Source: a virus
Lineage: Duplodnaviria; Caudoviricetes
IMG/VR virus record: IMGVR_UViG_3300031784_000002
Direction: 5' to 3' (one strand)
Length of the DNA: 64,000 bases
In this document: piece after piece, positions 719 through 21,933 of the stretch
Numbering within the stretch: position 1 is the first letter of the stretch
Layout: each line of letters opens with the position of its first letter
Program-made: the position numbers and the translations under genes
The notes under the pieces: generated by a model
Databases searched by the model: none
The model's input: only the letters and a program-made list of their open reading frames with translations
What the model was told of the DNA's origin: nothing

Positions 719-1780
719 ATGACTTCTTCTACACTTTCACAACCAATTTCACAACGAGGATGGTTCGATGTACTCGACGACTGGCTTAAGAGAGATCGTT
801 TCGTTTTTGTTGGCTGGTCTGGACTTCTTCTTTTTCCCACTGCTTACCTTGCTCTTGGTGGTTGGCTTACTGGGACAACTTTCGTTACGAGTTGGTATAC
901 TCACGGGCTTGCGAGTTCCTATCTTGAGGGTGCAAACTTTCTTACTGCAGCAGTTAGCACTCCAGCAGATTCTATGGGTCATTCTCTTCTTCTTCTCTGG
1001 GGTCCTGAGGCTCAAGGGGATATCGTCAGGTGGTTCCAACTTGGGGGACTCTGGACTTTTGTGGCGCTCCACGGGGTTTTCAGCCTGATTGGGTTTATGC
1101 TTCGTCAGTTTGAGATTGCTCGCCTGGTCGGCATCCGTCCTTATAACGCAATCGCATTCTCTGGTCCTATTGCAGTCTTCGTGAGCGTCTTTCTGATGTA
1201 TCCACTGGGGCAATCCAGTTGGTTCTTCGCACCTTCATTTGGTGTAGCAGCAATCTTCAGGTTCCTACTATTCTTACAAGGTTTTCATAACTGGACTCTT
1301 AACCCTTTCCATATGATGGGAGTTGCTGGTATACTGGGTGGAGCACTACTCTGTGCGATTCACGGAGCAACTGTAGAAAATACTCTGTATGAAGATGGCG
1401 AGCAAGCAAATACATTCAAAGGATTTGAACCTACGCAAGAGGAAGAGACTTACTCGATGGTTACTGCAAACCGATTCTGGTCACAGATTTTTGGTATTGC
1501 TTTCAGTAATAAGCGTTGGCTTCATTTCTTCATGCTTTTCGTTCCCGTTATGGGCCTTTGGACTTCTTCTATCGGTATTATTGGTCTGGCTCTTAATCTT
1601 CGTGCTTACGACTTTGTAAGTCAGGAGATTCGTGCAGCAGAGGACCCAGAGTTTGAAACCTTCTATACTAAGAACATTCTATTGAATGAAGGTCTACGTG
1701 CTTGGATGGCTCCTGTTGATCAACCTCATGAGAACTTTGTGTTCCCAGAAGAGGTCTTGCCGAGAGGTAACGCTCTCTGA
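719..1780 (+). CDS. psbD: Photosystem II D2 protein
   Basis: [23 protein letters not shown]...[10 protein letters not shown], full length, uninterrupted. Confidence 0.99.
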
Positions 1781-6616: not shown

Positions 6617-7597
6617 ATGAATAAAAAAATTATCAAGGTAATTCAAAAAGATGATTCTTTGATGCAACTGACTTGGGTAATTAATAATATCTGTAACAAT
6701 AGATGTTCTTATTGTGTACCTGCACTGAATAGTGGTATTGGTCACCATTATAGTTGGGAAAATGCTGACAAATTTTTAGATAAATTATTTGAAAAGTATC
6801 CTAAAGTTCACTGTTCTATAAGTGGAGGAGAACCAAGTCTTAGTCCTTTCTTTCCAGATCTTGTAAAAAAGTTTAATTATTCTGGAAATACTGTAGGTAC
6901 AACTAGTAATGCTTTCCAACCAGTAGAGTATTGGAAAGACGTTTCAAAATATTTGTACTATATTTGTTTTTCATATCACCCAGAATTTCCAGTCAAAGAC
7001 TTTAGAAAAAAAGTAATTGCTTCTAGTCTTAATACTTACGTTACAGTAAGAATTATGATGCTTCCATCTGCCTGGGATCATTGTGTAGAAGTGTTTAATT
7101 CTTTGAAAAATGTTCCTACTCTTCTTGTAGAACCTGTTAGAATTTTAGACTGGGGTGGTTCAAATAGAGAGGCTCACATTTATACCAAAAAACAGTTAGA
7201 TTGGTTTGAAAAAAAAGAAGTCTTACAAGCTCATATTAAACCAATGGGCCACTTAATTGATATAAAAGAACCTGTAGACACAGAATCTTCCTTTCAATTA
7301 GATGATGGATCTATTGTATCAGGTAATGATGCAAATCCTCTTCAATTCATTAACTTTGGAATGACTAACTTTGAAGGATACACTTGTGAAATAGGATTGA
7401 AAAGTTTGTTCGTCCATTATCATGGAGGAATACAAATGGGAAATTGTATGGTTGGAGGATTTATTGGAGAAATAGAAAATTTTGAAAACATTCAATGGCC
7501 GACAGAACCAGTTATTTGCAATAAAACTGAATGTCATTGTGCTACTGATGTCAACGTAAGTAAATGGGCGCCAAACTATGATGAATACATACAATGA
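6617..7597 (+). CDS. Radical SAM enzyme with C-terminal Cys (twitch/SPASM-like) extension
   Basis: CNNRCSYC (CxxxCxxC); ISGGEP; TTSN; C-terminal C...GNC...CNKTECHC. Confidence 0.88.
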   Translation: MNKKIIKVIQKDDSLMQLTWVINNICNNRCSYCVPALNSGIGHHYSWENADKFLDKLFEKYPKVHCSISGGEPSLSPFFPDLVKKFNYSGNTVGTTSNAFQPVEYWKDVSKYLYYICFSYHPEFPVKDFRKKVIASSLNTYVTVRIMMLPSAWDHCVEVFNSLKNVPTLLVEPVRILDWGGSNREAHIYTKKQLDWFEKKEVLQAHIKPMGHLIDIKEPVDTESSFQLDDGSIVSGNDANPLQFINFGMTNFEGYTCEIGLKSLFVHYHGGIQMGNCMVGGFIGEIENFENIQWPTEPVICNKTECHCATDVNVSKWAPNYDEYIQ

Positions 7598-9319: not shown

Positions 9320-9535
9320 ATGATTGCGACAAATTGGTTTCAAAAAAAGTGGGGTCTTGAAGATCCTGTTTTGACTGATGAACTTTATAATAGGATTGTT
9401 GAATTGGAACAACGAGTTAGAGTACTCGAAGAAGAAAATATAGAAACTACAAATGAATTATATCGTCTTGAGAACTCTTTGGATGCTCGTATAGATATTA
9501 TTGCTGAACGTTGTCAAATTAACTACGATGTATGA
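9320..9535 (+). CDS. Hypothetical coiled-coil protein
   Basis: ORF track. Confidence 0.65.
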   Translation: MIATNWFQKKWGLEDPVLTDELYNRIVELEQRVRVLEEENIETTNELYRLENSLDARIDIIAERCQINYDV

Positions 9536-9701
9536 CTTGGATGACTTTGAACGTGCCCTTGCTCACTTCGGCACAAGAGTTGACATCATCATTGCGCTTG
9601 AATTGGGTGGGAAGATTGATTCTCTTTCTGCTTACAAAGAAATCAAAGCAGAACTTAAAGAACTTAAACGAGCAAAAAAACAGTACGGAAAGGACATGTA
9701 G
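9528..9701 (+). CDS. Hypothetical protein
   Basis: Likely start MYDLDDFERALAHFG. Confidence 0.65.
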   Translation: MYDLDDFERALAHFGTRVDIIIALELGGKIDSLSAYKEIKAELKELKRAKKQYGKDM

Positions 9702-9816
9702 TAAGTGTGGTGAAACTAAACCATTGACTATTGAGTATTATCAATCTGTAAAGTCTTTTAAATATAAGTTTAGTTATTATTGTAATAGGTGCAATAATCC
9801 AAAATCTAAGGAATAA
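9532..9816 (+). CDS. Zn-ribbon protein overlapping the previous gene (start uncertain)
   Basis: C-terminal CSKC...CNRC. Confidence 0.45.
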   Translation: MTWMTLNVPLLTSAQELTSSLRLNWVGRLILFLLTKKSKQNLKNLNEQKNSTERTCSKCGETKPLTIEYYQSVKSFKYKFSYYCNRCNNPKSKE

Positions 9817-9825
9817 GTATTGACT

Positions 9826-9833
9826 TATAAATA
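9826..9833 (+). promoter_or_regulatory. T4-type late promoter
   Basis: Perfect TATAAATA about 30 nt upstream of ATG 9866. Confidence 0.75.
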
Positions 9834-9865: not shown

Positions 9866-10432
9866 ATGGCTCAATTGACATCCAGTGGAATAAGGTTTGC
9901 AACTATTCCCGCAGTAGATGAATTAAATTCAAGAAGAGGAATTTTTCCTACTAGCACTGCTTGGGTTTTTTATCAAACCTCAGCTCCTACTGGATGGACT
10001 AAATCCACAACTCATAATAATAAAGCCCTTAGAGTAGTGTCTGGAGATGGTGGTGGATCCGGAGGAACAAATAGTTTTACTTCCACTATGAGTAGTTTTA
10101 CTCTTGGTGGATCATTAACCTCCTCGAATGCCACAGGGGGAACTGAATTATCTGATACCCAAATTCCTGGGCACGTTCACCCTACAGGAGTAAGGTTAAA
10201 TGCTGTTCCTACATTAAACAATCCAGACGGTGCTTTTACTGGATGGAATGGTGGTGATGTAGCTCGTAGCACTGGTTGGACTAGAAATACTCCAGCAACT
10301 GGAGCTACAGGTGGAATTCCTAATGGAGCAGCACACGCTCACCCTTTTAGTGCAACAGGAACTCTTACAAATCAATCTGTAGACATAGCAGTTCAATACA
10401 TAGATGTTATCATCTGTACGTTTGATGGATAA
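9866..10432 (+). CDS. Putative tail-fibre/virion protein, paralog 1
   Basis: Gly/Thr/Ser-rich; FYQTSAPTGWTK collar-like motif; HxH motifs; late promoter. Confidence 0.7.
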   Translation: MAQLTSSGIRFATIPAVDELNSRRGIFPTSTAWVFYQTSAPTGWTKSTTHNNKALRVVSGDGGGSGGTNSFTSTMSSFTLGGSLTSSNATGGTELSDTQIPGHVHPTGVRLNAVPTLNNPDGAFTGWNGGDVARSTGWTRNTPATGATGGIPNGAAHAHPFSATGTLTNQSVDIAVQYIDVIICTFDG

Positions 10433-10469
10433 ATACTTTAAATAACATCTGTAGTTTACATCATATAAA

Positions 10470-10997
10470 ATGGCTAAATTAACAGCATCTGGAATAGTTT
10501 TTGGTGACTCAACTATTTTAAATTCTAAGTACGGAATTGTTCCACAAAACTCAGTATCCATATTTTATCAAACCTCGGCTCCTACTGGATGGACTAAATC
10601 CACAACTCATAATGATAAAACTCTCAGAGTTGTTAATGGAGACGGTGGTGGATCTGGAGGAACTTCATCGTTCACCACAGTATTTCCTGGTAGCTTGAGA
10701 ACAATATCGTCATCAAGTATTACAATGACTGGAACTGTTGGTAATACAACGTTAACTACCCCACAGTTACCTAGTCACACTCATCCTAATGGAGGTTTTG
10801 TTGGATTAACTTTGAGTCCTGGTGCTGGTGACGTTGCTTTTGGAGCCGGTTGGACTAGAAGTACTCCTGATACTGGTAGTGGACCGATTAATGGTGGCGG
10901 TTCTCATAGTCACCCTTGGTCGGGTACAGCTTCATTTTCTATAGATGTAGATTTTAGAGTTCAATACATAGATGTTATTGTTTGTACTTTTGCTTAA
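10470..10997 (+). CDS. Putative tail-fibre/virion protein, paralog 2
   Basis: Same FYQTSAPTGWTKSTTHN and VQYIDVI motifs; ATAAATA at 10429. Confidence 0.7.
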   Translation: MAKLTASGIVFGDSTILNSKYGIVPQNSVSIFYQTSAPTGWTKSTTHNDKTLRVVNGDGGGSGGTSSFTTVFPGSLRTISSSSITMTGTVGNTTLTTPQLPSHTHPNGGFVGLTLSPGAGDVAFGAGWTRSTPDTGSGPINGGGSHSHPWSGTASFSIDVDFRVQYIDVIVCTFA

Positions 10998-11031
10998 TCC
11001 GTGATAGAATAAGAAAAATATTTTTGTCTAT

Positions 11032-11376
11032 ATGAAAAAGAACGAATCAGGTAATTTTTGTCCTCTTATCAGGAAAGATTGTATCGAACATAAATGTTCG
11101 TGGTATACACATGTGAGAGGAATGAATCCAAATACAGGAGAAGATGTAGATCATTGGTCTTGTGCTGTAACTTGGATGCCTATGTTAACAATTGAAAATT
11201 CTCAACAACAAAGACAAACTGGATCAGCTGTAGAATCCTTTAGAAACGAAGTAGTCAAATCTAATACTGAGAATAGACAACTATATATTGATATGATTCA
11301 ACAAAATGGTATATTGCCAGTAAATGTAACTTCTTTGACAAGTACTCATACACTACCAGAAAATACAGGAGAATAA
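11032..11376 (+). CDS. Conserved Cys-containing hypothetical protein
   Basis: CPLIRKDC..KCSW..CAVTW. Confidence 0.7.
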   Translation: MKKNESGNFCPLIRKDCIEHKCSWYTHVRGMNPNTGEDVDHWSCAVTWMPMLTIENSQQQRQTGSAVESFRNEVVKSNTENRQLYIDMIQQNGILPVNVTSLTSTHTLPENTGE

Positions 11377-11379
11377 ATT

Positions 11380-11868
11380 ATGAAACTGACCATCATCCCT
11401 TCAGATAAATCTGTTTATGTAAATCAGATTGGTTATACCAATATTGATATGACTTGGGTTCCTATTATTGATGGAAAAAAAGTTCATGCAGTTCAATGGT
11501 TGGATGATGAAGGTGAAATTGAGTTTGTTGGACCTCATCAAAATTTAAAGATTACTAAGTTAGATGTATTCGAACAAGCAATTGAGTTGTGGAATGAAAA
11601 GAAACTCGAAGAAGAAACTCTCCTACGACAAAAACTAGAATCAGAAGAAAGACATAGAAAACAAGAAGAAGAACGTCTAAGATCACAATTTATTGGCGTT
11701 GATGATGAATTTGAAGTTGATGTTAGTGAACTTGATGAATATGGATATAGTGAAAAACCTTATATTGCTCCTTCAGAAACTCACATGCCTCCAGTAGAGC
11801 CTTTAATGTATGAGGATGAAGATGAAGATTTATTCTACGATATTGAAGAACTCCTAAAAGAAATTTGA
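11380..11868 (+). CDS. Hypothetical protein (possible fibre assembly factor)
   Basis: VHAVQW..EGEIEF N-terminal domain, acidic tail; follows fibre genes. Confidence 0.6.
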   Translation: MKLTIIPSDKSVYVNQIGYTNIDMTWVPIIDGKKVHAVQWLDDEGEIEFVGPHQNLKITKLDVFEQAIELWNEKKLEEETLLRQKLESEERHRKQEEERLRSQFIGVDDEFEVDVSELDEYGYSEKPYIAPSETHMPPVEPLMYEDEDEDLFYDIEELLKEI

Positions 11869-11889
11869 GTTTAAATTATTGAATTTGAA

Positions 11890-13056
11890 ATGATGAATCA
11901 AAAATTAATTGATAATAACTATATTGTCCTGTCAAATTTTATTTCAAAAGAAAGGGCGTTAAGTCTTTCTTCTGAATTTTTAAAACATTGCGAAGAAAAC
12001 AATATAGAAGGAGATCCTCAGGCTCCAAATTCATATTCTGCATATAATTACATATCATTTCTGGAATTACTCTGTGAAAAAACTACGGTAATCTCTTCGG
12101 CAATTGGCGAAACAGTTTTACCTACCTATGCATATTCTAGGGTATATAAAAAAGGAAGTGAATTAAAAAAACATATAGATAGAGATGCTTGTGAGATATC
12201 ATTAACTCTTCATCTACATGGAGATGTTGCTTGGCCTATATGGATTGAAACTTCTTCTGGGGAAACTCGTTGTGTGCAATTAAATCCCGGAGATGCTATG
12301 ATCTATATGGGAAAAATTGCTCCACATTGGAGAGAACCTTTCAGTGGAGAATGGTATAGTCAAGTATTCCTGCATTATGTTAGAAGTCGTGGAGATTGTT
12401 CATATGCATATTTTGACAAAGATAGTGAGAAAACTAAACCAGTAGTTGAAGAAATTAATATTCCTACTGAAACAAAAATAATGTCTTCTAGAGCTAAAAA
12501 ATCTTTAGAAGACTACATCTTTACGTTGGATAATATTGTTCCATCGGAATTGTGTGATAGAATTTTAAAAGAATATTCTGAATGTAGTTTTTGGACTCCT
12601 ACAAGCGTTGGTGATGGTAATGTAAATAATCAGATTAGAAATTGCGATACTATTAGTATTTCTGAACAACTAGTAATTGAAAAAAATTTCGACGTTAGGA
12701 AAAGAATAGACGAAGATTTTTATCTTTGCGCTTCAAAAGCAATCAATGAATATAGAAATTTATTTCCTGAAGTTGCCTCGGAGATTGATACTGGATACGG
12801 ATTACTGAGATATAAAGAAGGACAGTTTTATGTTCAACACACAGATTCTTTTAAGAGTCAACAAAGATCAGTGAGTTGTTCTTTCATGTTAAATGATGAT
12901 TATGAGGGTGGTGAGTTTGCATTTTTTGATAGAGAAATTGTAATAAAAGGATTAAAAGGATCTATAGTAATGTTCCCATCCAATTTCATGTATCCACATG
13001 AAATTATGCCAGTAACTTCTGGTACTCGTTACTCAATTATTACTTGGTATGTCTGA
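11890..13056 (+). CDS. Two-domain 2OG-Fe(II) oxygenase (prolyl-4-hydroxylase-like)
   Basis: Domain 1 HIDRDACEIS...PHWRE...VFLHY; domain 2 HTD...DYEGGEF...HEIMPVTSGTRYSIITW. Confidence 0.88.
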   Translation: MMNQKLIDNNYIVLSNFISKERALSLSSEFLKHCEENNIEGDPQAPNSYSAYNYISFLELLCEKTTVISSAIGETVLPTYAYSRVYKKGSELKKHIDRDACEISLTLHLHGDVAWPIWIETSSGETRCVQLNPGDAMIYMGKIAPHWREPFSGEWYSQVFLHYVRSRGDCSYAYFDKDSEKTKPVVEEINIPTETKIMSSRAKKSLEDYIFTLDNIVPSELCDRILKEYSECSFWTPTSVGDGNVNNQIRNCDTISISEQLVIEKNFDVRKRIDEDFYLCASKAINEYRNLFPEVASEIDTGYGLLRYKEGQFYVQHTDSFKSQQRSVSCSFMLNDDYEGGEFAFFDREIVIKGLKGSIVMFPSNFMYPHEIMPVTSGTRYSIITWYV

Positions 13057-13843
13057 GAAACTTGTAGGAATTCCAAGTATTTACTATCTAAATCTAGACT
13101 CTGAATTAGATAGAAGGGAATACATGGAAAAACAATTTGAGAGGTGGAATATCAATAATGTAACAAGATTTTCTGGATCAAATTATCTTGTAGAAAATTA
13201 TGATCATTGGAAAAATATCTTACATTTTCCTGAAAAAATTAAAGATAGACAACATCAATTAGCAGCTTCTATCACTCTATCAACCCTAGAAATGGTCAGA
13301 CATTGGTTAGAAACAACCGATGAAGACCATTTAATTTTATTTGAAGATGATTATGATTTAAATCTAATTGAATACTGGCATTTTGATTGGAATTATTTGA
13401 TGAAAAAAATTCCATACGATTGGGATTGTATTCAGTTGGGGTATGAATCATCTCATTATGTTAAATTTTTCCTTCACCCTAAGGATAAGACTAGTGCGTA
13501 TGGGCCGGTATTAATTAATAGACACTTCGCTCAGAAATTAATCAATTTACACTACTTTAAGGGTAAGTACTTGTTGATTCGTAAGTATGGTTCTTATCCA
13601 TATAATACTGGATACCGAGTTGTTTCATTGGATGATTTTGTTTGTTTTTTGGGAAAAACATATCAGTTGCCGTTAATAACTCAAAATCCACATCTAGATA
13701 AAGTATCAAAAAAACATCATTTTCTTTGCAAAGAAATCTATTATGATTGGTGGCAAAATAAAAGAGATAATTTTACTTTGGATGATTTTTTTTCTTATGG
13801 TAAACCAAATGATTATGAAATGACTGAAAAAGTAAATTACTAA
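13049..13843 (+). CDS. GT25-family glycosyltransferase 1
   Basis: YYLNLDSELDRREYME; LFEDD; DWDCIQLG. Confidence 0.8.
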   Translation: MSEKLVGIPSIYYLNLDSELDRREYMEKQFERWNINNVTRFSGSNYLVENYDHWKNILHFPEKIKDRQHQLAASITLSTLEMVRHWLETTDEDHLILFEDDYDLNLIEYWHFDWNYLMKKIPYDWDCIQLGYESSHYVKFFLHPKDKTSAYGPVLINRHFAQKLINLHYFKGKYLLIRKYGSYPYNTGYRVVSLDDFVCFLGKTYQLPLITQNPHLDKVSKKHHFLCKEIYYDWWQNKRDNFTLDDFFSYGKPNDYEMTEKVNY

Positions 13844-14667
13844 TGTCTACCAACCCTAAGTTAAAAAATCTTCCTCCAATATATTACTTTAATCTGGATC
13901 ACAGAAAAGATCGTAAAGAATATATTGAAAAACAATTTTTAGATCATGGAATAACAAACTATCATAGAGTTAATTCTTCTAGATATTCTGTAGAAAATTA
14001 TAAGGATTGGAGATCCAAAGTAGTAACTGACAAACTTAGAACTCAGGTGTGGTTTCTAGCTACCCTAATTGATAGAATACATGGTATAATTGATTGGTAT
14101 GAATCTAATATTTCTGAAACCTGTCTAATAGTTGAAGATGATTTTTGTTTAGATCCAGTTGAGTACTGGAACTTTGATTGGAAAACTTTTGTCGATAATC
14201 TACCTTGTACCTGGGAGTGCGTCCAACTTCACATTATTGGAGAGAAATTCATTAGAATGAATCTGTCTAAGTGGACTGTAAACAATCACTCCACAGGATG
14301 TATACTTATTAATAGATCATATGCAAAAAAATTAATTGATCTTCATTACATAGAAGGTAAATTTAAATTATATTCTAACTATGGATATAGTAAAAAATGG
14401 CCAGAATATCATTATCAATCAGTAGATTTTGTTTTATACCAAATAGGAGTTACATATTCAATTCCAATCTTTACCACCAACTACAACTTCATAAGTGATG
14501 GGTATAGGAATGGAAAAATAAATTATATGGCTAAAAATTCTGATCAATTAGTTTTAGATTGGTGGAAAAATAAGTCTCCAGATTACACATTAGATGATGT
14601 TTTTTATTTAAATTCAATTAAAAGAAAGGAATTAATTATAGAAGTTAATCATGAATTTGAAGGATAA
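13843..14667 (+). CDS. GT25-family glycosyltransferase 2
   Basis: YYFNLDHRKDRKEYIE; IVEDD; WECVQL. Confidence 0.8.
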   Translation: MSTNPKLKNLPPIYYFNLDHRKDRKEYIEKQFLDHGITNYHRVNSSRYSVENYKDWRSKVVTDKLRTQVWFLATLIDRIHGIIDWYESNISETCLIVEDDFCLDPVEYWNFDWKTFVDNLPCTWECVQLHIIGEKFIRMNLSKWTVNNHSTGCILINRSYAKKLIDLHYIEGKFKLYSNYGYSKKWPEYHYQSVDFVLYQIGVTYSIPIFTTNYNFISDGYRNGKINYMAKNSDQLVLDWWKNKSPDYTLDDVFYLNSIKRKELIIEVNHEFEG

Positions 14668-15517
14668 ATTAAAAGGCCTACCCCCAATTATTTTGGCTAC
14701 AATTGATGAAAGGCCAGATAGACAGGAATATGCTGAAATTCAGTATGATTATTGGGGTATTAAAAATTATACAAAAGTTTCTGGGTCAAAGTATCAACTT
14801 TCAACATATGAAGATTGGAAAGATTTGGTTATCTTGAATCCATTTGAAGAATATCATAGAAAAAATCATCATATTGCAGAAATTTCCATAACTCTGGCTC
14901 ACTTAATCAATATAAAAAATTGGTTAGAAACTACTAATGATCCATATGTAATTATCATGGAAGATGATTATGATTTAAATTTTATTGATTATTGGCATTT
15001 TGACTGGGAACATCTAATGAATAATATCCCATATGATTGGGATTGTATTCAAATGACTTTCGAGAATGAGGAGTGTATGCCATGTTTTTTGCATCCAATT
15101 CTAAGTGGACATGACACTGGTGCTTCTTTAATTAATAGGAGATATGCAGAAAAAATTATAAGTCTTCACTATAAAGATGGTAAATTTGATTTATCACAGA
15201 AAATTTCTAACTACAAATGGTCAAGTCAAGGTATAAAAACCTTTGAAGGTTTGGGAATGCCCAATTTTACAACGGATTATTTTCTAGGTCATAACGGAAA
15301 AACATATTGTATTCCACTTTTTTCAGTAAATCCTGGTTTTGGTAGTTGGGCTCAAAATATTGATAGAAGAGAGGAGAGAGTGGATTTAGCTTTTTCTTAT
15401 AAGGCTTGTAAAAAGTGGTGGACTGAATTGAGAGATCAGTATACACTCGAAGAATTCTTTACTTATGGTAAACCAAATGATAGAATAATTTTACCAAGTG
15501 AATTTGAAAATGTTTGA
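14651..15517 (+). CDS. GT25-family glycosyltransferase 3
   Basis: IDERPDRQEY; IMEDD; DWDCIQM. Confidence 0.8.
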   Translation: MNLKDKLKGLPPIILATIDERPDRQEYAEIQYDYWGIKNYTKVSGSKYQLSTYEDWKDLVILNPFEEYHRKNHHIAEISITLAHLINIKNWLETTNDPYVIIMEDDYDLNFIDYWHFDWEHLMNNIPYDWDCIQMTFENEECMPCFLHPILSGHDTGASLINRRYAEKIISLHYKDGKFDLSQKISNYKWSSQGIKTFEGLGMPNFTTDYFLGHNGKTYCIPLFSVNPGFGSWAQNIDRREERVDLAFSYKACKKWWTELRDQYTLEEFFTYGKPNDRIILPSEFENV

Positions 15518-16097
15518 GTACGTTACCGAGTTTGAATCACAAATTGCTGAGTTTTTTGGAGCTCCTTATGCAGTAGCTACTGATTCATGTACTCATGCAT
15601 TAGAACTTTGTTTGAGACATACTAGGCAAGATCATATTACAATTCCAACCAGAACATATATTTCGGTTCCGATGACTTGTATGAAACTTGGATTAAATTG
15701 GAATTGGAAAGAAGAAGAGTGGTCTGATTATTATCACTTAGGAAATACTACAATTGTTGATGCTGCTGTTCTTTGGGGTAAAAATACGTATCTATCGAAC
15801 ACATTTATGTGTTTAAGTTTTCAGTTCAAAAAACATTTGAACCTAGGAAGAGGTGGTGCAATTCTGTTGCAAAACAAAGAGGATTATGATACACTTAAAA
15901 AAATGTCTTATGATGGTCGTGATCTCAGTCGTCCATGGGCCGAACAAGACATAGATACTATCGGGTATCATTATTACATGACTCCTGAGGTGGCCAAAAC
16001 GGGAATTGAATTACTAAATGAGCGGAAAAAAACTCCCGGTAAAAAATGGAGCCACAGGGATTACCCAGATTTGAGAGAAATGTCAGTGTTCAAATGA
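15510..16097 (+). CDS. Short DegT/DnrJ/EryC1/StrS PLP sugar aminotransferase
   Basis: FESQIAEFFGAPYAVATDSCTHAL; VDAA; SFQFKK...GRGGAI; GYHYYM; only about 195 aa. Confidence 0.8.
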   Translation: MFEYVTEFESQIAEFFGAPYAVATDSCTHALELCLRHTRQDHITIPTRTYISVPMTCMKLGLNWNWKEEEWSDYYHLGNTTIVDAAVLWGKNTYLSNTFMCLSFQFKKHLNLGRGGAILLQNKEDYDTLKKMSYDGRDLSRPWAEQDIDTIGYHYYMTPEVAKTGIELLNERKKTPGKKWSHRDYPDLREMSVFK

Positions 16098-16606
16098 TCA
16101 ATCATATAACCCCTAATTGGGACATTAAGGATTTTTACGACCTTAACTACGAATTATCTACACATAAAGATGAAGAGTTGGTAAATCAGTATTTAAGTTC
16201 TGGACATAATAAAGAAAAATTGTCCATTTATAAGTATCAGTTACCAAATCCTATGCCAAAATGTGTAGATGAGTATATCATTCCACATTTTGACTTTTTG
16301 GATAAAGTGGCTGCTGCAGTTAATTACTTTAAACCTGGTCAATATCTACCTCTTCACACGGATTTATTTGGAAAGTATGTAGAAATCAATAATATTGGTT
16401 CCGAAAACGTAATAAGATGTATGGTAATGTTGGAAGATAATTCTCCAGGTCAAATTTTACAAATTAAAGATACTGCATATTCTACATGGAAGGCTGGAGA
16501 TTGTTTCTATTGGGATTATCATGAAATACATGCTTTTTATAATTTCAGTATGAAAGATAGGTACGCGATTCAAATTACGGGAGTTAAAAATGAAAAGTCA
16601 AAATGA
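16094..16606 (+). CDS. Cupin/2OG-type oxygenase-like protein
   Basis: PLHTD...HEIHAFYN...RYAIQITG; likely start at ATGA overlap. Confidence 0.65.
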   Translation: MINHITPNWDIKDFYDLNYELSTHKDEELVNQYLSSGHNKEKLSIYKYQLPNPMPKCVDEYIIPHFDFLDKVAAAVNYFKPGQYLPLHTDLFGKYVEINNIGSENVIRCMVMLEDNSPGQILQIKDTAYSTWKAGDCFYWDYHEIHAFYNFSMKDRYAIQITGVKNEKSK

Positions 16607-17552
16607 GTGGGGTAAACTAAAAAAAGTGATAGTGGGAGTTGCGGATCATGCAAGAGTTCCCGAAATGGATTTGAGTGTCCGTACAATCAACTATGCAGAT
16701 AGAAAAGACGTTTCTGATGTTCCAGTTGGATTATATCCTCAACAAGTTATAGACGAAGCCAATGAAGATTTGGAGCGTTTTGTTAATTTTTTACTTGGAG
16801 AGGGTGTAGAAGTTGTAAGACCGCAGAAAACTTCTACCGATTATTACAATTTTTGCCCAAGAGATGTTGTCTTTACTCATAAAGATTTGACTGTAACGAC
16901 TCCTATGCCATTAAAGTGTAGAAAAAATGCATGGGAACCTCTGATTGATCTATTGGGAACTACTATTATTGTTCCATGTAAACATAATGAAGATCTTTAC
17001 AATGAAAATTGTGTAGGAGATAAAGATGTTCTTGCTTTGACCGAAGTGACTCCCGCATTTGATGCTGCAAATGTTATTCGTGCAAACGATGATGTATTAT
17101 ATCTTGTTTCTAATAGTGGAAATGTGGAAGGCGCGAAGTTACTACAGGAAATGTTGAGGGATCGGGCAAAAGTTCACCTTTTACAAGGTGTTTATAGTTA
17201 CATGCACATAGATACAACAGTTGCGTTTCTTCGTGAAGGTTTAATGTTGTTAAATCCAGAACGAATTAAATCTGTCGATGTACTTCCAGAACCTTTTAGG
17301 AGTTGGGATGTAGTTTGGTGCCCAGAACCAGTAGATATTGGTTATCATCCTGGATATAATCACGCTTCAGAGTGGTGTAATATGAATCTTTTCAGTATTA
17401 ATCCAAACTTGGTGGCTTTAGAAGAACATCAAGAACCCACTCGAAAAGAACTTGAAAAGTATGGAATAGAGTGTGCAATGTTACCCATGAGACACTCAAG
17501 AACATTGAGTGGATGTTTCCACTGTGTTACACTTGACCTTGAAAGAGAATAG
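16590..17552 (+). CDS. Amidinotransferase (glycine/inosamine-phosphate amidinotransferase family)
   Basis: NEWGKLKKVIVG; FCPRD; FDAANV; HIDTT; catalytic GCFHCVTLDL. Confidence 0.92.
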   Translation: MKSQNEWGKLKKVIVGVADHARVPEMDLSVRTINYADRKDVSDVPVGLYPQQVIDEANEDLERFVNFLLGEGVEVVRPQKTSTDYYNFCPRDVVFTHKDLTVTTPMPLKCRKNAWEPLIDLLGTTIIVPCKHNEDLYNENCVGDKDVLALTEVTPAFDAANVIRANDDVLYLVSNSGNVEGAKLLQEMLRDRAKVHLLQGVYSYMHIDTTVAFLREGLMLLNPERIKSVDVLPEPFRSWDVVWCPEPVDIGYHPGYNHASEWCNMNLFSINPNLVALEEHQEPTRKELEKYGIECAMLPMRHSRTLSGCFHCVTLDLERE

Positions 17553-18409
17553 TGGACTTAGAAAATAAACTCAAGGGACTTCCTATGATTTATTATGTAA
17601 ATCTAGATCACAGAGTCGATAGGAAAGAATGGATGGAAACTCAGTTTAGTGACTGGGGGATAACAAATTATCACAGAGTTTGTGCATCGAAATATGATGT
17701 TTCGAAATATGATGAGTGGAAGGATATAGTTGTAGAAGAAGGAATTCTTGAGTGTGTTTCCTTAATGTCAACTGCCGTAAACAATATAGAAACAATCGTT
17801 AATTGGTATGACACTCATCCATCCGAAACTTGTATTATGATGGAGGATGATCTGTCTTTAGGGACAATAAAATATTGGAATTTTGACTGGACTTACTTTG
17901 AAAATAATCTACCAGAAAATTGGGAGTGTGTTCAACTTTATTTCTGTAGTACATATCATGAGGATGGACTGTCTTTCCCAATGTTTTTGCATAAAAGACA
18001 TGATGCAGGTTCAGCCGCAGCATATTTGATAAATCGTTCATATGCAAAGAAAGTCAAAGATTTGATGTATCGTGATGGTAGGTACAAATTAACTTTTAAC
18101 GATAACTCATTTCATAAAAGATACAGTAAAACTAATATAATACAAGACGCTAACTTATTTGACATCGGAATTACATATTCTATTCCTCTTTTCAATCTTA
18201 ACATAAATTTGGGTGGTGATAATCAACAAAATGGAAACAAAATGTTTCCTATGGATATAATTTGTAGTCGATTAATAGGTGATTGGTGGAAGAATCATCA
18301 TCATAAGTTTTCACTAGAAGATTTCTTCACTTATGGTAAACCCAATGATCATAAAATGACTTTAAAAGTGAAAATGGAATATATAATAAAATTTTTAGAA
18401 AAATGTTAA
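17552..18409 (+). CDS. GT25-family glycosyltransferase 4
   Basis: YYVNLDHRVDRKEWME; MMEDD; NWECVQL (probable GTG start). Confidence 0.8.
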   Translation: MDLENKLKGLPMIYYVNLDHRVDRKEWMETQFSDWGITNYHRVCASKYDVSKYDEWKDIVVEEGILECVSLMSTAVNNIETIVNWYDTHPSETCIMMEDDLSLGTIKYWNFDWTYFENNLPENWECVQLYFCSTYHEDGLSFPMFLHKRHDAGSAAAYLINRSYAKKVKDLMYRDGRYKLTFNDNSFHKRYSKTNIIQDANLFDIGITYSIPLFNLNINLGGDNQQNGNKMFPMDIICSRLIGDWWKNHHHKFSLEDFFTYGKPNDHKMTLKVKMEYIIKFLEKC

Positions 18410-19899
18410 TATTGAGTATTCATTTAGGTCATGATTCTTCCATATGTATTTTTAATAATGGTTGCGTAGAGAAATATTTTCTATTAGAGAGATTTACGAG
18501 AATAAAACATGATTACGATAAAGATATAATATTAGAGTTGGTTGATAATATTTGTAGTGAATATAATGTCGATATACTTTGTATATCTAATTTTAATGAT
18601 CATGATGATATCATATTAAAAATTCTTGAAAAATGTAGGGAATTTAATATAAATGTTGAATTGATTATGCAATCGGATCACCATTTAAATCACGCTTCTC
18701 TTGCTTTTTATAATAGTGGTTTTGATGAAAGTCTTGTTATTGTTGCTGATGGAGCTGGGTCAACAATACAAGATAACTTGGTGGAAGTAGAAAGTGTGTT
18801 TTTGTTCAATCAAAAGAATAATACTTTAATTTATAAAAACGTTGTTGAAGAATCTTCTTTTGGTGTAGGGGGATTGTATGACATTGCAGCTGTAATGATT
18901 GGAAATACTCCAGATGATTGCGGAAAAGCAATGGGACTTTCGTCGTATGGATCTTCAAATAATTTATTTGAAAATTTATTCTCGGAGAGTGGGTGGGATA
19001 TAGAACCTATAAAAAAAGTAGAAATAGAAAATTACAAACTACATGCAGATTTTTGTTATGAAGTTCAACATCAAACTCAAAAAGTAATAGGAGACTTAAT
19101 AGAAAATTATGTAAAACAAACTGACGTTAAAAAAGTTTGCATTTCTGGTGGTTATGGTATGAATATAGTCGCAAATTACTATTATCTACAACGATTTCCT
19201 AACATACAATTTTATTTTGAACCATTGTGTAATGATAATGGTGTAAGCATTGGTGCAGCAATGAATACTTACGTTGAATTATCAAAAAAAATTCCAAATT
19301 CTATTGGAACAATATATTTTCATGGATCACATTATGATCTTTCTTCATATAAAGGTACAACAACCTCAATAAAGGATATCGCCAATCTATTATATAAAAA
19401 TAAGTCTGTTGGAGTTTATACGGGTCTTGCTGAAGTTGGACAAAGAGCATTAGGTAATAGATCTATCTTATTCAATCCACTAAATCAAAATGCAAAAGAC
19501 ATTGTAAATCAAATAAAAAAAAGAGAGTGGTATCGTCCTTTTGCTTGCATGGTATTGGAGGAAGATGCCAATGTTTATTTTGATATGGGAGATATAAAAT
19601 CAAGTCCATTTATGACCATATGTTTCCCAGTAAGGTCAAAGTATGTTAAAATAATACATGGAGTAACTCATATAGATAAAACGTGTAGAATTCAAACGGT
19701 TTCTAAAACAGATGGGTACTTGTATGAACTTTTACACGAATTTAAAAAACTATCTGGATATGGAATACTTTTGAATACTAGTTTTAATTTATCCGGAGAA
19801 CCATTAGTGGAAACTCCAATGGATGCATTTAATACTTTAAACAATTCTTATTTGGATTATCTTTGGTTTGAAAAAACACGACAATTATTTAATAGCTGA
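18403..19899 (+). CDS. NodU/CmcH-type O-carbamoyltransferase
   Basis: HLGHDSS; HHLNHA; DGAG; RALGNRSIL; KKREWYRPFA; RIQTV; LLNTSFN..GEPLVET. Confidence 0.93.
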   Translation: MLILSIHLGHDSSICIFNNGCVEKYFLLERFTRIKHDYDKDIILELVDNICSEYNVDILCISNFNDHDDIILKILEKCREFNINVELIMQSDHHLNHASLAFYNSGFDESLVIVADGAGSTIQDNLVEVESVFLFNQKNNTLIYKNVVEESSFGVGGLYDIAAVMIGNTPDDCGKAMGLSSYGSSNNLFENLFSESGWDIEPIKKVEIENYKLHADFCYEVQHQTQKVIGDLIENYVKQTDVKKVCISGGYGMNIVANYYYLQRFPNIQFYFEPLCNDNGVSIGAAMNTYVELSKKIPNSIGTIYFHGSHYDLSSYKGTTTSIKDIANLLYKNKSVGVYTGLAEVGQRALGNRSILFNPLNQNAKDIVNQIKKREWYRPFACMVLEEDANVYFDMGDIKSSPFMTICFPVRSKYVKIIHGVTHIDKTCRIQTVSKTDGYLYELLHEFKKLSGYGILLNTSFNLSGEPLVETPMDAFNTLNNSYLDYLWFEKTRQLFNS

Positions 19900-19900
19900 T

Positions 19901-20089
19901 ATGGAGAACAAACAAATTCATGAATCTGGTCTCAACATTATTGAAAATCCAGATGGATCCTACGCATTTGAGTGGGATCCAAAAGACGAAAGATGGTCTT
20001 GGATGAATGGGTTGACAGATTCACAAATCAAGTCTATAGTAGAAGACATAATTGCAAAACAGTCAGAGTTTGACGCAAATGACAAGTAA
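19901..20089 (+). CDS. Hypothetical protein
   Basis: Likely start MENKQIHESG. Confidence 0.65.
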   Translation: MENKQIHESGLNIIENPDGSYAFEWDPKDERWSWMNGLTDSQIKSIVEDIIAKQSEFDANDK

Positions 20090-20792
20090 AGTGTGGGAAG
20101 TGATGAACGATCTTGAGATGATAACATCCAAGATTGTATCTGCTCGTGAGATTATTGATACCGCAGCAGAGGCAATTCAGAGAAATGAATATGATAAGGC
20201 AGAGACTCTTGCGATGGCAGCATATGAGTTTCTTGGATATTATCTGGATGAGTTTGATACAAAGTTCAAACTTGCCTGGCAGGAAACTGTAAAAAAACAA
20301 GATAAAGGATTTGAAGTAGATACCACACTTGATGATTGTATGCCACCTTGGGGTCATAGTGATTTAGAGTACGCATCTAAACACAAAGAACCTCTGAGTT
20401 GTGATAAAGATGATCCTTCCCCAGAATGTCAAGGCGCCTGGAATAGTTTCTGGGAAGATAATTATTATCAAGATTATATGATTTCTCGTAATGATCCGAC
20501 TCGACTAAAGTATGAATCGGGATGGGTTTATGAATCTCCTAATGGCGGAAAGACAATTACTAAACGTAAAGTTGGGTCTACTGAAAAGATTATTGTGAAA
20601 GAAGATAAGGTTGTTAAGTGGCAACTTCCTGTTGAGATGGATCCAAGTGGTGAATGCTTTGTTTTATTCCCAGATGATTTGTTAGAAGCAACAAATCTTA
20701 AAGAAGGTGATCAAGTAGAGTGGGTTGATAGGGGTGATGGATCCTATCTTCTTCGTAAGGTAAATGCACCACTCGGAATGGATGAGTGCTGA
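20079..20792 (+). CDS. Composite protein with C-terminal AbrB/MazE-like domain
   Basis: C-terminus WQLPVEMD...LFPDDLLEATNLKEGDQVEWVDRGDGSYLLRKV. Confidence 0.6.
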   Translation: MTSKVWEVMNDLEMITSKIVSAREIIDTAAEAIQRNEYDKAETLAMAAYEFLGYYLDEFDTKFKLAWQETVKKQDKGFEVDTTLDDCMPPWGHSDLEYASKHKEPLSCDKDDPSPECQGAWNSFWEDNYYQDYMISRNDPTRLKYESGWVYESPNGGKTITKRKVGSTEKIIVKEDKVVKWQLPVEMDPSGECFVLFPDDLLEATNLKEGDQVEWVDRGDGSYLLRKVNAPLGMDEC

Positions 20793-21456: not shown

Positions 21457-21933
21457 ATGCATGAGTTACCAATAGAACCCTATAAAACAGTATTGGTTTT
21501 AAATTCTAGTTATGAACCAATTAATTTTACAAACTGGAAACGGGCTATCGTTCTTCTTTTAAAGGAAAAAGCACAAGTACTTTCGAGTAGAGTCATTAGA
21601 CTCTTAGATTATGTAAAGTTGCCTATATCTAAAATTATGAACATTTCTCCTTCTCGTTCTATGATTTATAAGAGGGATAATCATACTTGCCAATACTGTG
21701 GAGCAAGGTCTAGACTCACTATAGATCATGTAATTCCTCGTTCTAAGGGAGGTGAAGATTCGTGGGAAAATTTAGTAGTGGCTTGTTCTTCATGTAATAC
21801 CAAAAAAGGTAATATACTTCTTGAACATACTGGAATGAAATTGGCTAGAAAACCAAGAGCTCCAGTTAATAAAATGATTTTTGATCTTGAAAAAACTAAC
21901 GTTGAAGAATGGAGACAGTATCATTATGAATGA
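21457..21933 (+). CDS. HNH endonuclease (McrA-like, cyanobacterial type)
   Basis: RDNHTCQYC; TIDHVIPRSKGG; WENLVVACSSCNTKKGN. Confidence 0.92.
   Translation: MHELPIEPYKTVLVLNSSYEPINFTNWKRAIVLLLKEKAQVLSSRVIRLLDYVKLPISKIMNISPSRSMIYKRDNHTCQYCGARSRLTIDHVIPRSKGGEDSWENLVVACSSCNTKKGNILLEHTGMKLARKPRAPVNKMIFDLEKTNVEEWRQYHYE

Follow-up and report, generated by a model that had tools for sequence, protein, structure and literature searches.

What does a phage make with a dense array of sugar-modifying genes, and to what does it attach the product? We asked this of a 64,000-nucleotide stretch of the IMG/VR virus record IMGVR_UViG_3300031784_000002 (the whole stretch is called the window below), in which eight consecutive genes at 13049-19899 encode predicted GT25-like glycosyltransferases (four genes), a short DegT-type aminotransferase, a small 2-oxoglutarate (2OG)/Fe(II) oxygenase, an arginine amidinotransferase and an O-carbamoyltransferase. 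An earlier note had read these genes as a complete pathway that makes and attaches a cationic guanidino/carbamoyl sugar, with virion proteins, host lipopolysaccharide (LPS) or phage DNA as possible acceptors. We estimate, with a probability of roughly 0.5, that the cassette assembles a short sugar chain in which one residue is turned into a guanidino (N-amidino-amino) deoxy sugar, which is optionally O-carbamoylated. The window, which encodes gp32, baseplate gp53, a photosystem reaction-centre protein and a large fibre protein, derives from an IMG/VR viral contig of 90 kb that is about 44% complete. The phage is a freshwater T4-like cyanomyovirus. The stretch 9900-19899 recurs at full word share in freshwater and lake metagenome contigs from at least 16 studies (2017-2025), and we conclude that this is a widespread lake phage, though its nearest isolate is marine.

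A coupled gene array is co-inherited across related viral loci

We refer to the eight genes as B to I and to the gene before them as A (Table 1). All eight open reading frames (ORFs) lie intact on the plus strand, at the coordinates and in the order that the earlier note had given, and the overlapping stops and starts that it described were found at every junction. The overlaps are 1 nt for B/C and G/H, 7 nt for H/I, 17 nt for C/D and F/G, 20 nt for D/E (8 nt if E starts at ATG 15510) and 52 nt for E/F (4 nt, ATGA, if F starts at ATG 16094). The proposed operon was thus coupled as described. Its start at 13049 did not hold, because A (11890-13056) overlaps B by 8 nt and extends the unit upstream. 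Four further genes, u1 to u4 (9866-11868), precede A with gaps of 3-37 nt. The array probably starts at 9826, and the unit predicted from that position would lead from a conserved T4-type late-promoter motif by way of two tail-fibre-tip-like genes, u3, u4 and the double 2OG oxygenase gene A on to the first glycosyltransferase gene and those behind it.

Relatives of the amidinotransferase G are encoded in 207 IMG/VR stretches. We surveyed the best 80 of these 207 loci, picked by similarity to G (at least 64% identity), together with the window, giving 81 loci in which all ORFs were clustered without reference to the window annotation. Many of the contigs are truncated, and the locus counts are therefore lower bounds. 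G was present in all 81 loci, E in 76, F in 72 and GT25-like genes in 65 (211 copies). A, u3 and u4 were each found in 45 loci, with u3 always placed between the fibre genes and A, and fibre-like genes were found in 43. SPASM radical SAM genes occurred in 27 loci, a 270-aa radical SAM gene in 26, a UDP-glucose/GDP-mannose dehydrogenase gene in 18, a GT2 gene in 15 and a GDP-mannose 4,6-dehydratase (GMD) gene in 10. The dominant tight array reads fibre, fibre, u3, u4, A, three to four GT25-like genes, E, F, an optional radical SAM gene and G, followed optionally by another GT25-like gene and a carbamoyltransferase gene. Tandem GT25 paralogues number up to six or seven in relatives, and H follows G in the closer relatives only. 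The synteny survey shows that the array is co-inherited across the 81 loci. Dozens of diverged viral contigs show this array again, and we conclude that the eight-gene arrangement is not due to chance. E, F and G, together with GT25 genes, make up the conserved core. A megablast search of the region against GenBank phages gave no match.

The carbamoyltransferase, which the earlier note had placed among the integral members of the pathway, was found in only 27 of the 81 loci, and in the Synechococcus phage S-SCSM2R, which is cultured on Synechococcus WH7803, it lies 44 kb away, beside another glycan cluster that is itself preceded by u2-like genes. We therefore regard I as an accessory tailoring gene.

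E resembles DegT enzymes and G resembles StrB1

E scored 59.8 bits against PF01041 (cut-off 19.8). Its likely start at ATG 15510 gives a protein of 195 aa that matches the lengths of its homologues, which range from 194 to 202 aa in 31 non-redundant sequences. E departs from the two-domain DegT architecture of about 360-400 aa, in which a pyridoxal 5'-phosphate (PLP) domain is followed by a C-terminal small domain: its structure model, with a predicted local distance difference test score (pLDDT) of 93, covers the large PLP-binding domain only. The top Foldseek matches were nucleotide-sugar aminotransferases, namely GDP-perosamine synthase, AtS13, ArnB and WbpE, with template modelling (TM) scores of about 0.64-0.77 by query and 0.33-0.43 by target. 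The PLP lysine is Lys112 in the motif SFQxxK, which aligned to Lys188 of AHBA synthase, and Asp88 (which pairs with the pyridine nitrogen), Ser107 and Lys112 were invariant in 32 sequences. Two short AlphaFold DB clusters share the single-domain form, and homologues fall into at least 8000 metagenome protein clusters. The reading of this short DegT protein as a pseudogene or fragment was ruled out, since both length and catalytic residues are conserved. As judged from sequence conservation, we conclude that E is a conserved single-domain 'mini-DegT' protein.

We also modelled E as a homodimer with PLP. The model scored 0.91 against 0.02 for the best control, the runs agreed in 95% of contacts, and the pLDDT of the partner was 94. 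Of 30 proteins solved as one-chain pairs, 20 attained this mark, as did one of 23 solved as single chains. Since DegT dimers have already been solved, the score shows likeness to them and is not proof; the model supports the prediction that E forms a homodimer.

In two related loci (L031, 7054-9036; L035, 306-2288), E and F are replaced by three genes, c90, c56 and c68, that encode proteins of 167, 364 and 136 aa and sit between the GT25 genes and the GMD-amidinotransferase pair. None of the three had a Pfam, PDB or profile match. We considered c56 as a full-length DegT protein swapped in for E; with no match in those searches, such a natural swap was not established. The three genes may provide an alternative route to the amine.

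The best match of G among solved structures was StrB1 (1BWD; E = 1.2e-57 over residues 4-319), followed at E values of about 1e-26 to 1e-31 by HsvA, SxtG and AGAT. Cys312, His206, Asp158, Asp92 and Asp208 of G aligned to Cys332, His227, the Asp of FDAAN, Asp108 and Asp229 of StrB1, respectively, and all five were invariant in 25 viral homologues, which confirms that the catalytic Asp, His and Cys are intact, as had been claimed. We conclude that G is a predicted L-arginine amidinotransferase, for which the gene context suggests an amine acceptor.

In bacteria, common relatives of G stand in another setting, seen on a Halioglobus chromosome (L094, 7855-15275). There, the G relative comes after SbnA-like (PALP) and SbnB-like (ornithine cyclodeaminase family) genes and precedes a gene for a 1409-aa adenylation-carrier-hexapeptide protein. 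Judged by these neighbours, marine Halieaceae may make a guanidinylated product of the diaminopropionate type.

By fold, F belongs to the 2OG/Fe(II) oxygenases. Its model (pLDDT 87) matched the double-stranded beta-helix of many 2OG oxygenases with VIA-align Z scores of 11-13.8, and its His104-x-Asp106...His162 triad was invariant, as was Arg172, which follows the distal histidine by 10 residues. F scored 22.5 bits against PF05118, for which the cut-off is 22.6. The nearest predicted-structure clusters were all viral.

B, C, D and H are paralogues that are 33-41% identical. Their assignment to GT25 stood as a family-level likeness, and the Pfam cut-off was not reached by any window protein: B alone scored against PF01755 (E = 0.0081; 16.5 bits, cut-off 24), and C, D and H gave no match to it. 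Of 50 relatives, 17 matched PF01755 at E values of 0.01 or less (best E = 5.4e-7), and in an Atlas feature search with C, 95 of 100 named matches were PF01755 clusters (score 0.97). A GT-A type acidic motif, E99-D100-D101, is invariant in the four paralogues; across the 50 relatives D100 is invariant and E99 and D101 are conserved in at least 90%. This motif aligns with the EDD of Mimivirus R655, which is the sole solved relative of the family and a collagen galactosylhydroxylysyl glucosyltransferase (PMC9546862).

I matched PF16861 (E = 1.7e-54; 184.3 bits, cut-off 27) and PF02543 (E = 5.4e-19; 69.3 bits, cut-off 24). Among characterised enzymes it matched TobZ at an E value of about 1e-37 and also NovN and GdmN, and both the Kae1-like N-terminal and the YrdC-like C-terminal domains were found. 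At 498 aa it is shorter than TobZ, NodU and CmcH (about 570-700 aa), and its N-terminal Pfam match begins at profile position 122. The family is widespread in cyanomyoviruses without the trio (146 phage records). In S-SCSM2R a wcaG motif lies upstream of the carbamoyltransferase gene; an Rfam scan of the window at gathering thresholds found tRNAs only and no wcaG motif.

A predicted route to a guanidino sugar

Clues to the substrate came from the neighbours of the trio in related loci. In three of these (L031, L035 and L040), a GMD gene (PF16363, E = 2.5e-113) ends inside the start of the G gene, and a UDP-glucose/GDP-mannose dehydrogenase gene adjoins the trio in 18 loci. A nucleotide-sugar 6-dehydrogenase gene lies beside the trio in L064 and L073, with a sulfotransferase, further oxygenases and a carbamoyltransferase nearby in L064. 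GMD-family enzymes were encoded by all five larger genomes with the trio. The GMD and UDP-sugar dehydrogenase neighbours therefore indicate a nucleotide-sugar substrate, and, taken with the likeness of E to perosamine-type aminotransferases, the evidence points to a 4-keto-6-deoxyhexose nucleotide or to a sugar carbinol oxidised by F.

In the window itself we found no nucleotidyltransferase, short-chain dehydrogenase/reductase (SDR) dehydratase or kinase. No gene there supplies an activated or keto sugar, and the pathway is therefore incomplete within 13049-19899, contrary to the earlier description of it as complete. The proposed chemistry, amination followed by amidino transfer on a sugar handled by GT25 enzymes, fared better in its enzyme logic, which agrees with the fold of E, the residues of G and the GMD and dehydrogenase neighbours.

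The following scheme is our inference as to all substrates, the sequence of reactions, what F does and where the product is attached. F would oxidise a sugar carbinol to a keto sugar; alternatively, GDP-4-keto-6-deoxymannose would come from a GMD of the host or from one encoded in another part of the phage genome. A dimeric E would then transaminate the keto sugar with PLP, and G, by way of the cysteine in its active site, would pass an amidino group from L-arginine to the new amine, releasing ornithine. The four GT25-like paralogues would add sugars singly, and I could carbamoylate a hydroxyl through carbamoyl-AMP. Most likely, the acceptor would be the fibre-tip proteins that the first genes of the unit encode, after their hydroxylation by A.

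Late-promoter motifs, fibre genes and the acceptor

A T4-type late-promoter-like motif, TATAAATA, lies 40 nt upstream of u1. Among 31 distinct upstream regions of related loci, 29 carry the motif NATAAATA at a distance of 28-54 nt before the first fibre-like gene, and it was retained even where the flanks had diverged. Two copies of the late-promoter motif, at 9826 (before u1) and at 10428 (before u2), are the only ones on the plus strand between 9 and 21 kb, and none stands ahead of the enzyme genes. We found no convincing terminator in the same 9-21 kb. With two motifs only and no convincing terminator, it appears that read-through from the late promoters of the fibre genes serves the enzyme genes, and the array is probably transcribed late.

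The products of u1 and u2 are 53% identical. The profile of their family (A6) matched two solved tail fibre proteins at their receptor-binding ends (9QGO, E = 6.2e-7; 9NXK, E = 2.1e-5), and a homologue of u2 with 49.5% identity, gp128 of S-SCSM1, is annotated as 'tail fiber protein (virion protein)'. Searches against Pfam and PHROG gave nothing for u3 or u4. The C-terminal domain of A matched PF13640 (E = 2.2e-20, residues 304-387) and is of the prolyl-4-hydroxylase (P4H)/prolyl hydroxylase domain (PHD) type, with EGLN1 and the P4H of P. putida among its PDB matches. Its N-terminal part, which in features as well as in shape resembles 2OG oxygenase clusters, probably forms a second 2OG oxygenase domain. 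A 'ferrochelatase' label attached to this domain in cyanophages was dropped as an inherited annotation, given the resemblance to 2OG oxygenases.

The late promoters of the fibre genes, the protein-hydroxylase-type domain of A and the link to R655 lead us to favour a virion acceptor over the host envelope. We hold that the acceptor is the virion fibre proteins only tentatively. More tentative still is the fuller picture, in which the phage would decorate its own fibre-tip adhesins in a collagen- or Skp1-like manner, by 2OG hydroxylation, GT25 glycosylation and a guanidinium sugar from a virus-specific trio that includes a minimal DegT protein. If true, this decoration of fibre tips would bring a guanidino sugar into a glycoconjugate for the first time and amount to a new kind of virion modification, with effects on adsorption or host range. 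To our knowledge, a guanidino sugar has not been described so far in a glycoconjugate. Picocyanobacteria are major primary producers, and a cationic glycan on the virion or on the cell surface would alter how their phages adsorb, which hosts they infect or how they compete with one another. The single-domain DegT protein and the virus-only small oxygenase would represent new enzyme architectures.

Several points weigh against a guanidino glycan carried by fibre proteins. No product has been observed, and the guanidino-sugar chemistry is predicted from genes. E lacks the C-terminal domain of all solved DegT enzymes, which makes its activity and its binding of sugar nucleotides uncertain, and F could act as a hydroxylase on something else entirely. 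We found no sugar-activating or keto-sugar-forming enzyme in the window or in the 90-kb contig, which is 44% complete. The cellular relatives nearest to G (36-41% identity) occur in small-molecule contexts, with SbnA/SbnB-like genes and a gene resembling nonribosomal peptide synthetases (NRPS), or with carbamoyltransferase and class-III aminotransferase genes. Neither E nor F was found beside the bacterial relatives of G, which leaves no characterised cellular cluster as a template. The GT25 enzymes characterised in bacteria have lipo-oligosaccharide, not protein, as their substrate. The promoter and operon calls are drawn from motifs, and the neighbourhood of fibre genes may only reflect the hypervariable fibre/glycan island of T4-like marine phages (PMC7029224).

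The same guanidino-sugar chemistry could be aimed at the host envelope, remodelling LPS or another surface glycan and, for example, blocking superinfection. This is a doubtful reading, for which the extension of lipo-oligosaccharide by bacterial GT25 enzymes and the Pfam name of PF01755, 'LPS biosynthesis protein', nevertheless speak. The literature on the hypervariable cluster and on S-SCSM2R also favours modification of the host surface (PMC7029224, PMC12801897), and the window encodes no acceptor-specific element. The position of the array behind a conserved late-promoter motif together with fibre genes, and without a promoter motif of its own, argues against it. Remodelling of the surface just before lysis would bring little exclusion benefit. 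No flippase, polymerase, lipid-carrier priming transferase or membrane protein was found in the array. We consider it unlikely that the product is a free small molecule, such as an aminoglycoside-like pseudo-oligosaccharide or a guanidino metabolite ('antibiotic synthesis') that is perhaps released or used within the cell. Nearly every family in the array has a counterpart in aminoglycoside or cyanotoxin synthesis (DegT-type enzymes, StrB1, TobZ, a KanJ-type 2OG oxygenase and, in relatives, radical SAM enzymes), the closest cellular homologues of G occur in NRPS-type or secondary-metabolite contexts, and in the S-SCSM2R study E, G and the radical SAM gene are put down to antibiotic synthesis. 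Against this, we found no cyclitol synthase, kinase, phosphatase or exporter, and the transferases are GT25-like, with the GT-A fold used on glycolipid or protein, rather than GT-B as in aminoglycoside pathways. A free metabolite likewise fits poorly with an array that, behind a late promoter, is co-inherited with fibre genes and with an oxygenase of the protein-hydroxylase type.

Phage glycosyltransferases classically modify DNA, and the DNA of CP220-group Campylobacter phages is heavily modified. Distant homologues of G (24-26% identity) occur in these phages, and DNA glucosylation was raised as a possibility in the S-SCSM2R paper (PMC12801897). Hypermodified phage DNA, with a hydroxymethylated base that is glycosylated, amidinated or carbamoylated, would nonetheless be a very improbable product of the array. 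A ThyA-family enzyme is absent from three complete genomes that bear the trio, namely S-SCSM2R and two IMG/VR genomes rated 100% complete, which makes a hydroxymethyl-pyrimidine DNA target unlikely and tells against the earlier suggestion of DNA as an acceptor. It is also absent from a fourth genome (77% complete) and from the incomplete 90-kb contig. The tandem GT25 paralogues, up to six or seven in number, suggest an oligosaccharide. The CP220 neighbours gp085, gp088 and gp089 showed no detectable homology to the profiles of E, F and the glycosyltransferase family.

Comparison with known systems

The nearest chemical counterpart is the streptidine branch of streptomycin synthesis (the dehydrogenase StrI, the DegT-family aminotransferase StsC, a kinase and the amidinotransferase StrB1), which shares the logic of oxidation, transamination by a DegT-family enzyme and amidino transfer from arginine. 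The 13-gene array and its flanks yielded no counterpart to the inositol-phosphate/cyclitol synthase, NAD dehydrogenase, kinase and phosphatase of that pathway. The array differs further in its 195-aa single-domain aminotransferase, in that the oxidant, if any, would be a 2OG oxygenase, and in its setting among four GT25-like transferases in a phage late unit. In relatives, G is linked to GMD, which implies a hexose rather than a cyclitol. We conclude that the streptidine pathway is a good chemical analogy and that the array is not a member of it.

The closest genomic counterpart is the syntenic cluster ORF301-ORF310 of S-SCSM2R (PQ898602). It encodes a double 2OG oxygenase, GT25-like enzymes, a mini-DegT protein (67% identity), a small oxygenase (65%) and an amidinotransferase (71.5%), and adds radical SAM and GT2 genes. 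The authors of that study called the mini-DegT, radical SAM and amidinotransferase genes 'antibiotic synthesis genes', assigned the glycosyltransferases to cell wall modification and proposed no pathway (PMC12801897). The statement that no characterised phage pathway of this kind is known still holds, although the genes have been listed in this isolate. We found no link in the literature between an amidinotransferase and a sugar nucleotide such as GDP-perosamine. Because S-SCSM2R is cultured and carries the cluster, the question is directly testable.

Pairing of a P4H/PHD-type oxygenase with glycosyltransferases is also seen in the PLOD/COLGALT enzymes of collagen, in Mimivirus L230/R655 and in the Skp1 P4H with its glycosyltransferases; in the array, A is directly coupled to a GT25-like gene. 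We found no collagen-like G-X-Y repeats in the window, and the candidate substrates here are small fibre-tip proteins. The amine/amidino tailoring trio has no known equivalent in collagen/Skp1-type systems.

The array also resembles the host recognition cluster of marine T4-like pelagiphages and cyanomyophages, in which tail-fibre genes are mixed with glycan genes and the content varies (PMC7029224). That cluster, defined by its position between VrlC and the neck gene gp14, contains glycosyltransferases, sugar-nucleotide enzymes and radical SAM cassettes, and its authors read it as serving modification of the host O-chain (PMC7029224). Its description names no amidinotransferase, mini-DegT or oxygenase module (PMC7029224).

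A cluster in Campylobacter phage CP220 (L164; NC_027997, 70690-79273) contains an amidinotransferase gene (26% identity), five radical SAM genes and two GT-A-fold genes, followed by a PAP2 phosphatase gene. It may serve at most as an analogy to the array in the window.

Features of the array and its surroundings

Table 1. Positions of the array genes, regulatory motifs and neighbouring genes in the window.
Feature	Position	Strand	Length	Basis or remark
Photosystem reaction-centre ORF	719-1780			PF00124
Radical SAM protein	6617-7597		326 aa	2.3 kb upstream of array
HNH/endonuclease VII-like ORF	9532-9816		94 aa	weak likeness
T4-type late-promoter-like motif	9826-9833	+		upstream of u1
u1, tail-fibre-tip-like	9866-10432	+	188 aa	profile match; APTGW motif and two HxH motifs
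u2, tail-fibre-tip-like	10470-10997	+	175 aa	paralogue of u1
u3, Cys-rich	11032-11376	+	114 aa	co-inherited with array
u4, acidic C-terminus	11380-11868	+	162 aa	45 of 81 loci
A, two-domain 2OG/Fe(II) oxygenase	11890-13056	+	388 aa	PF13640
B, GT25-like	13049-13843	+	264 aa	phrog_2835, E = 3.2e-35
C, GT25-like	13843-14667	+	274 aa	phrog_2835, E = 1.9e-38
D, GT25-like	14651-15517	+	288 aa	phrog_2835, E = 2.5e-38
E, 'mini-DegT' PLP enzyme (predicted)	15498-16097	+	195 aa from likely ATG 15510	PF01041
F, small 2OG/Fe(II) oxygenase	16046-16606	+	170 aa from likely ATG 16094	fold, residues
G, StrB1-like L-arginine amidinotransferase (predicted)	16590-17552	+	320 aa	1BWD
H, GT25-like	17552-18409	+	285 aa	phrog_2835, E = 5.3e-40; GTG start
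I, TobZ/NodU-type O-carbamoyltransferase	18403-19899	+	498 aa	PF16861, PF02543; accessory
Sigma-70-like promoter (putative)	20012-20040	+		TTGACA-17-TATAGT, 11/12; consensus match only
AbrB/MazE-like protein	20052-20792		246 aa	PF04014 (C-terminal), E = 8.6e-4, below cut-off
HNH endonuclease	21457-21933			PF01844, E = 1.9e-17

The putative sigma-70-like promoter at 20012-20040 probably starts the next transcription unit after the array. Directly after the array lies the gene for a protein with a C-terminal AbrB/MazE-like domain, and such a gene stands downstream of the amidinotransferase gene in 46 of the 81 loci. The HNH endonuclease gene about 1.5 kb downstream of the array and the weak HNH/endonuclease VII-like ORF just upstream of the late-promoter motif may be homing endonucleases that bracket the island.

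At the other end of the window, the first 783 bases are not part of the 90-kb contig, and the G+C content is 0.445 in positions 1-2000 against about 0.35 elsewhere. The photosystem reaction-centre ORF crosses the boundary at 783, and its first 65 nt may therefore not belong to it. The radical SAM gene upstream of the array may function in the pathway of the array, because related loci often have radical SAM genes within it.

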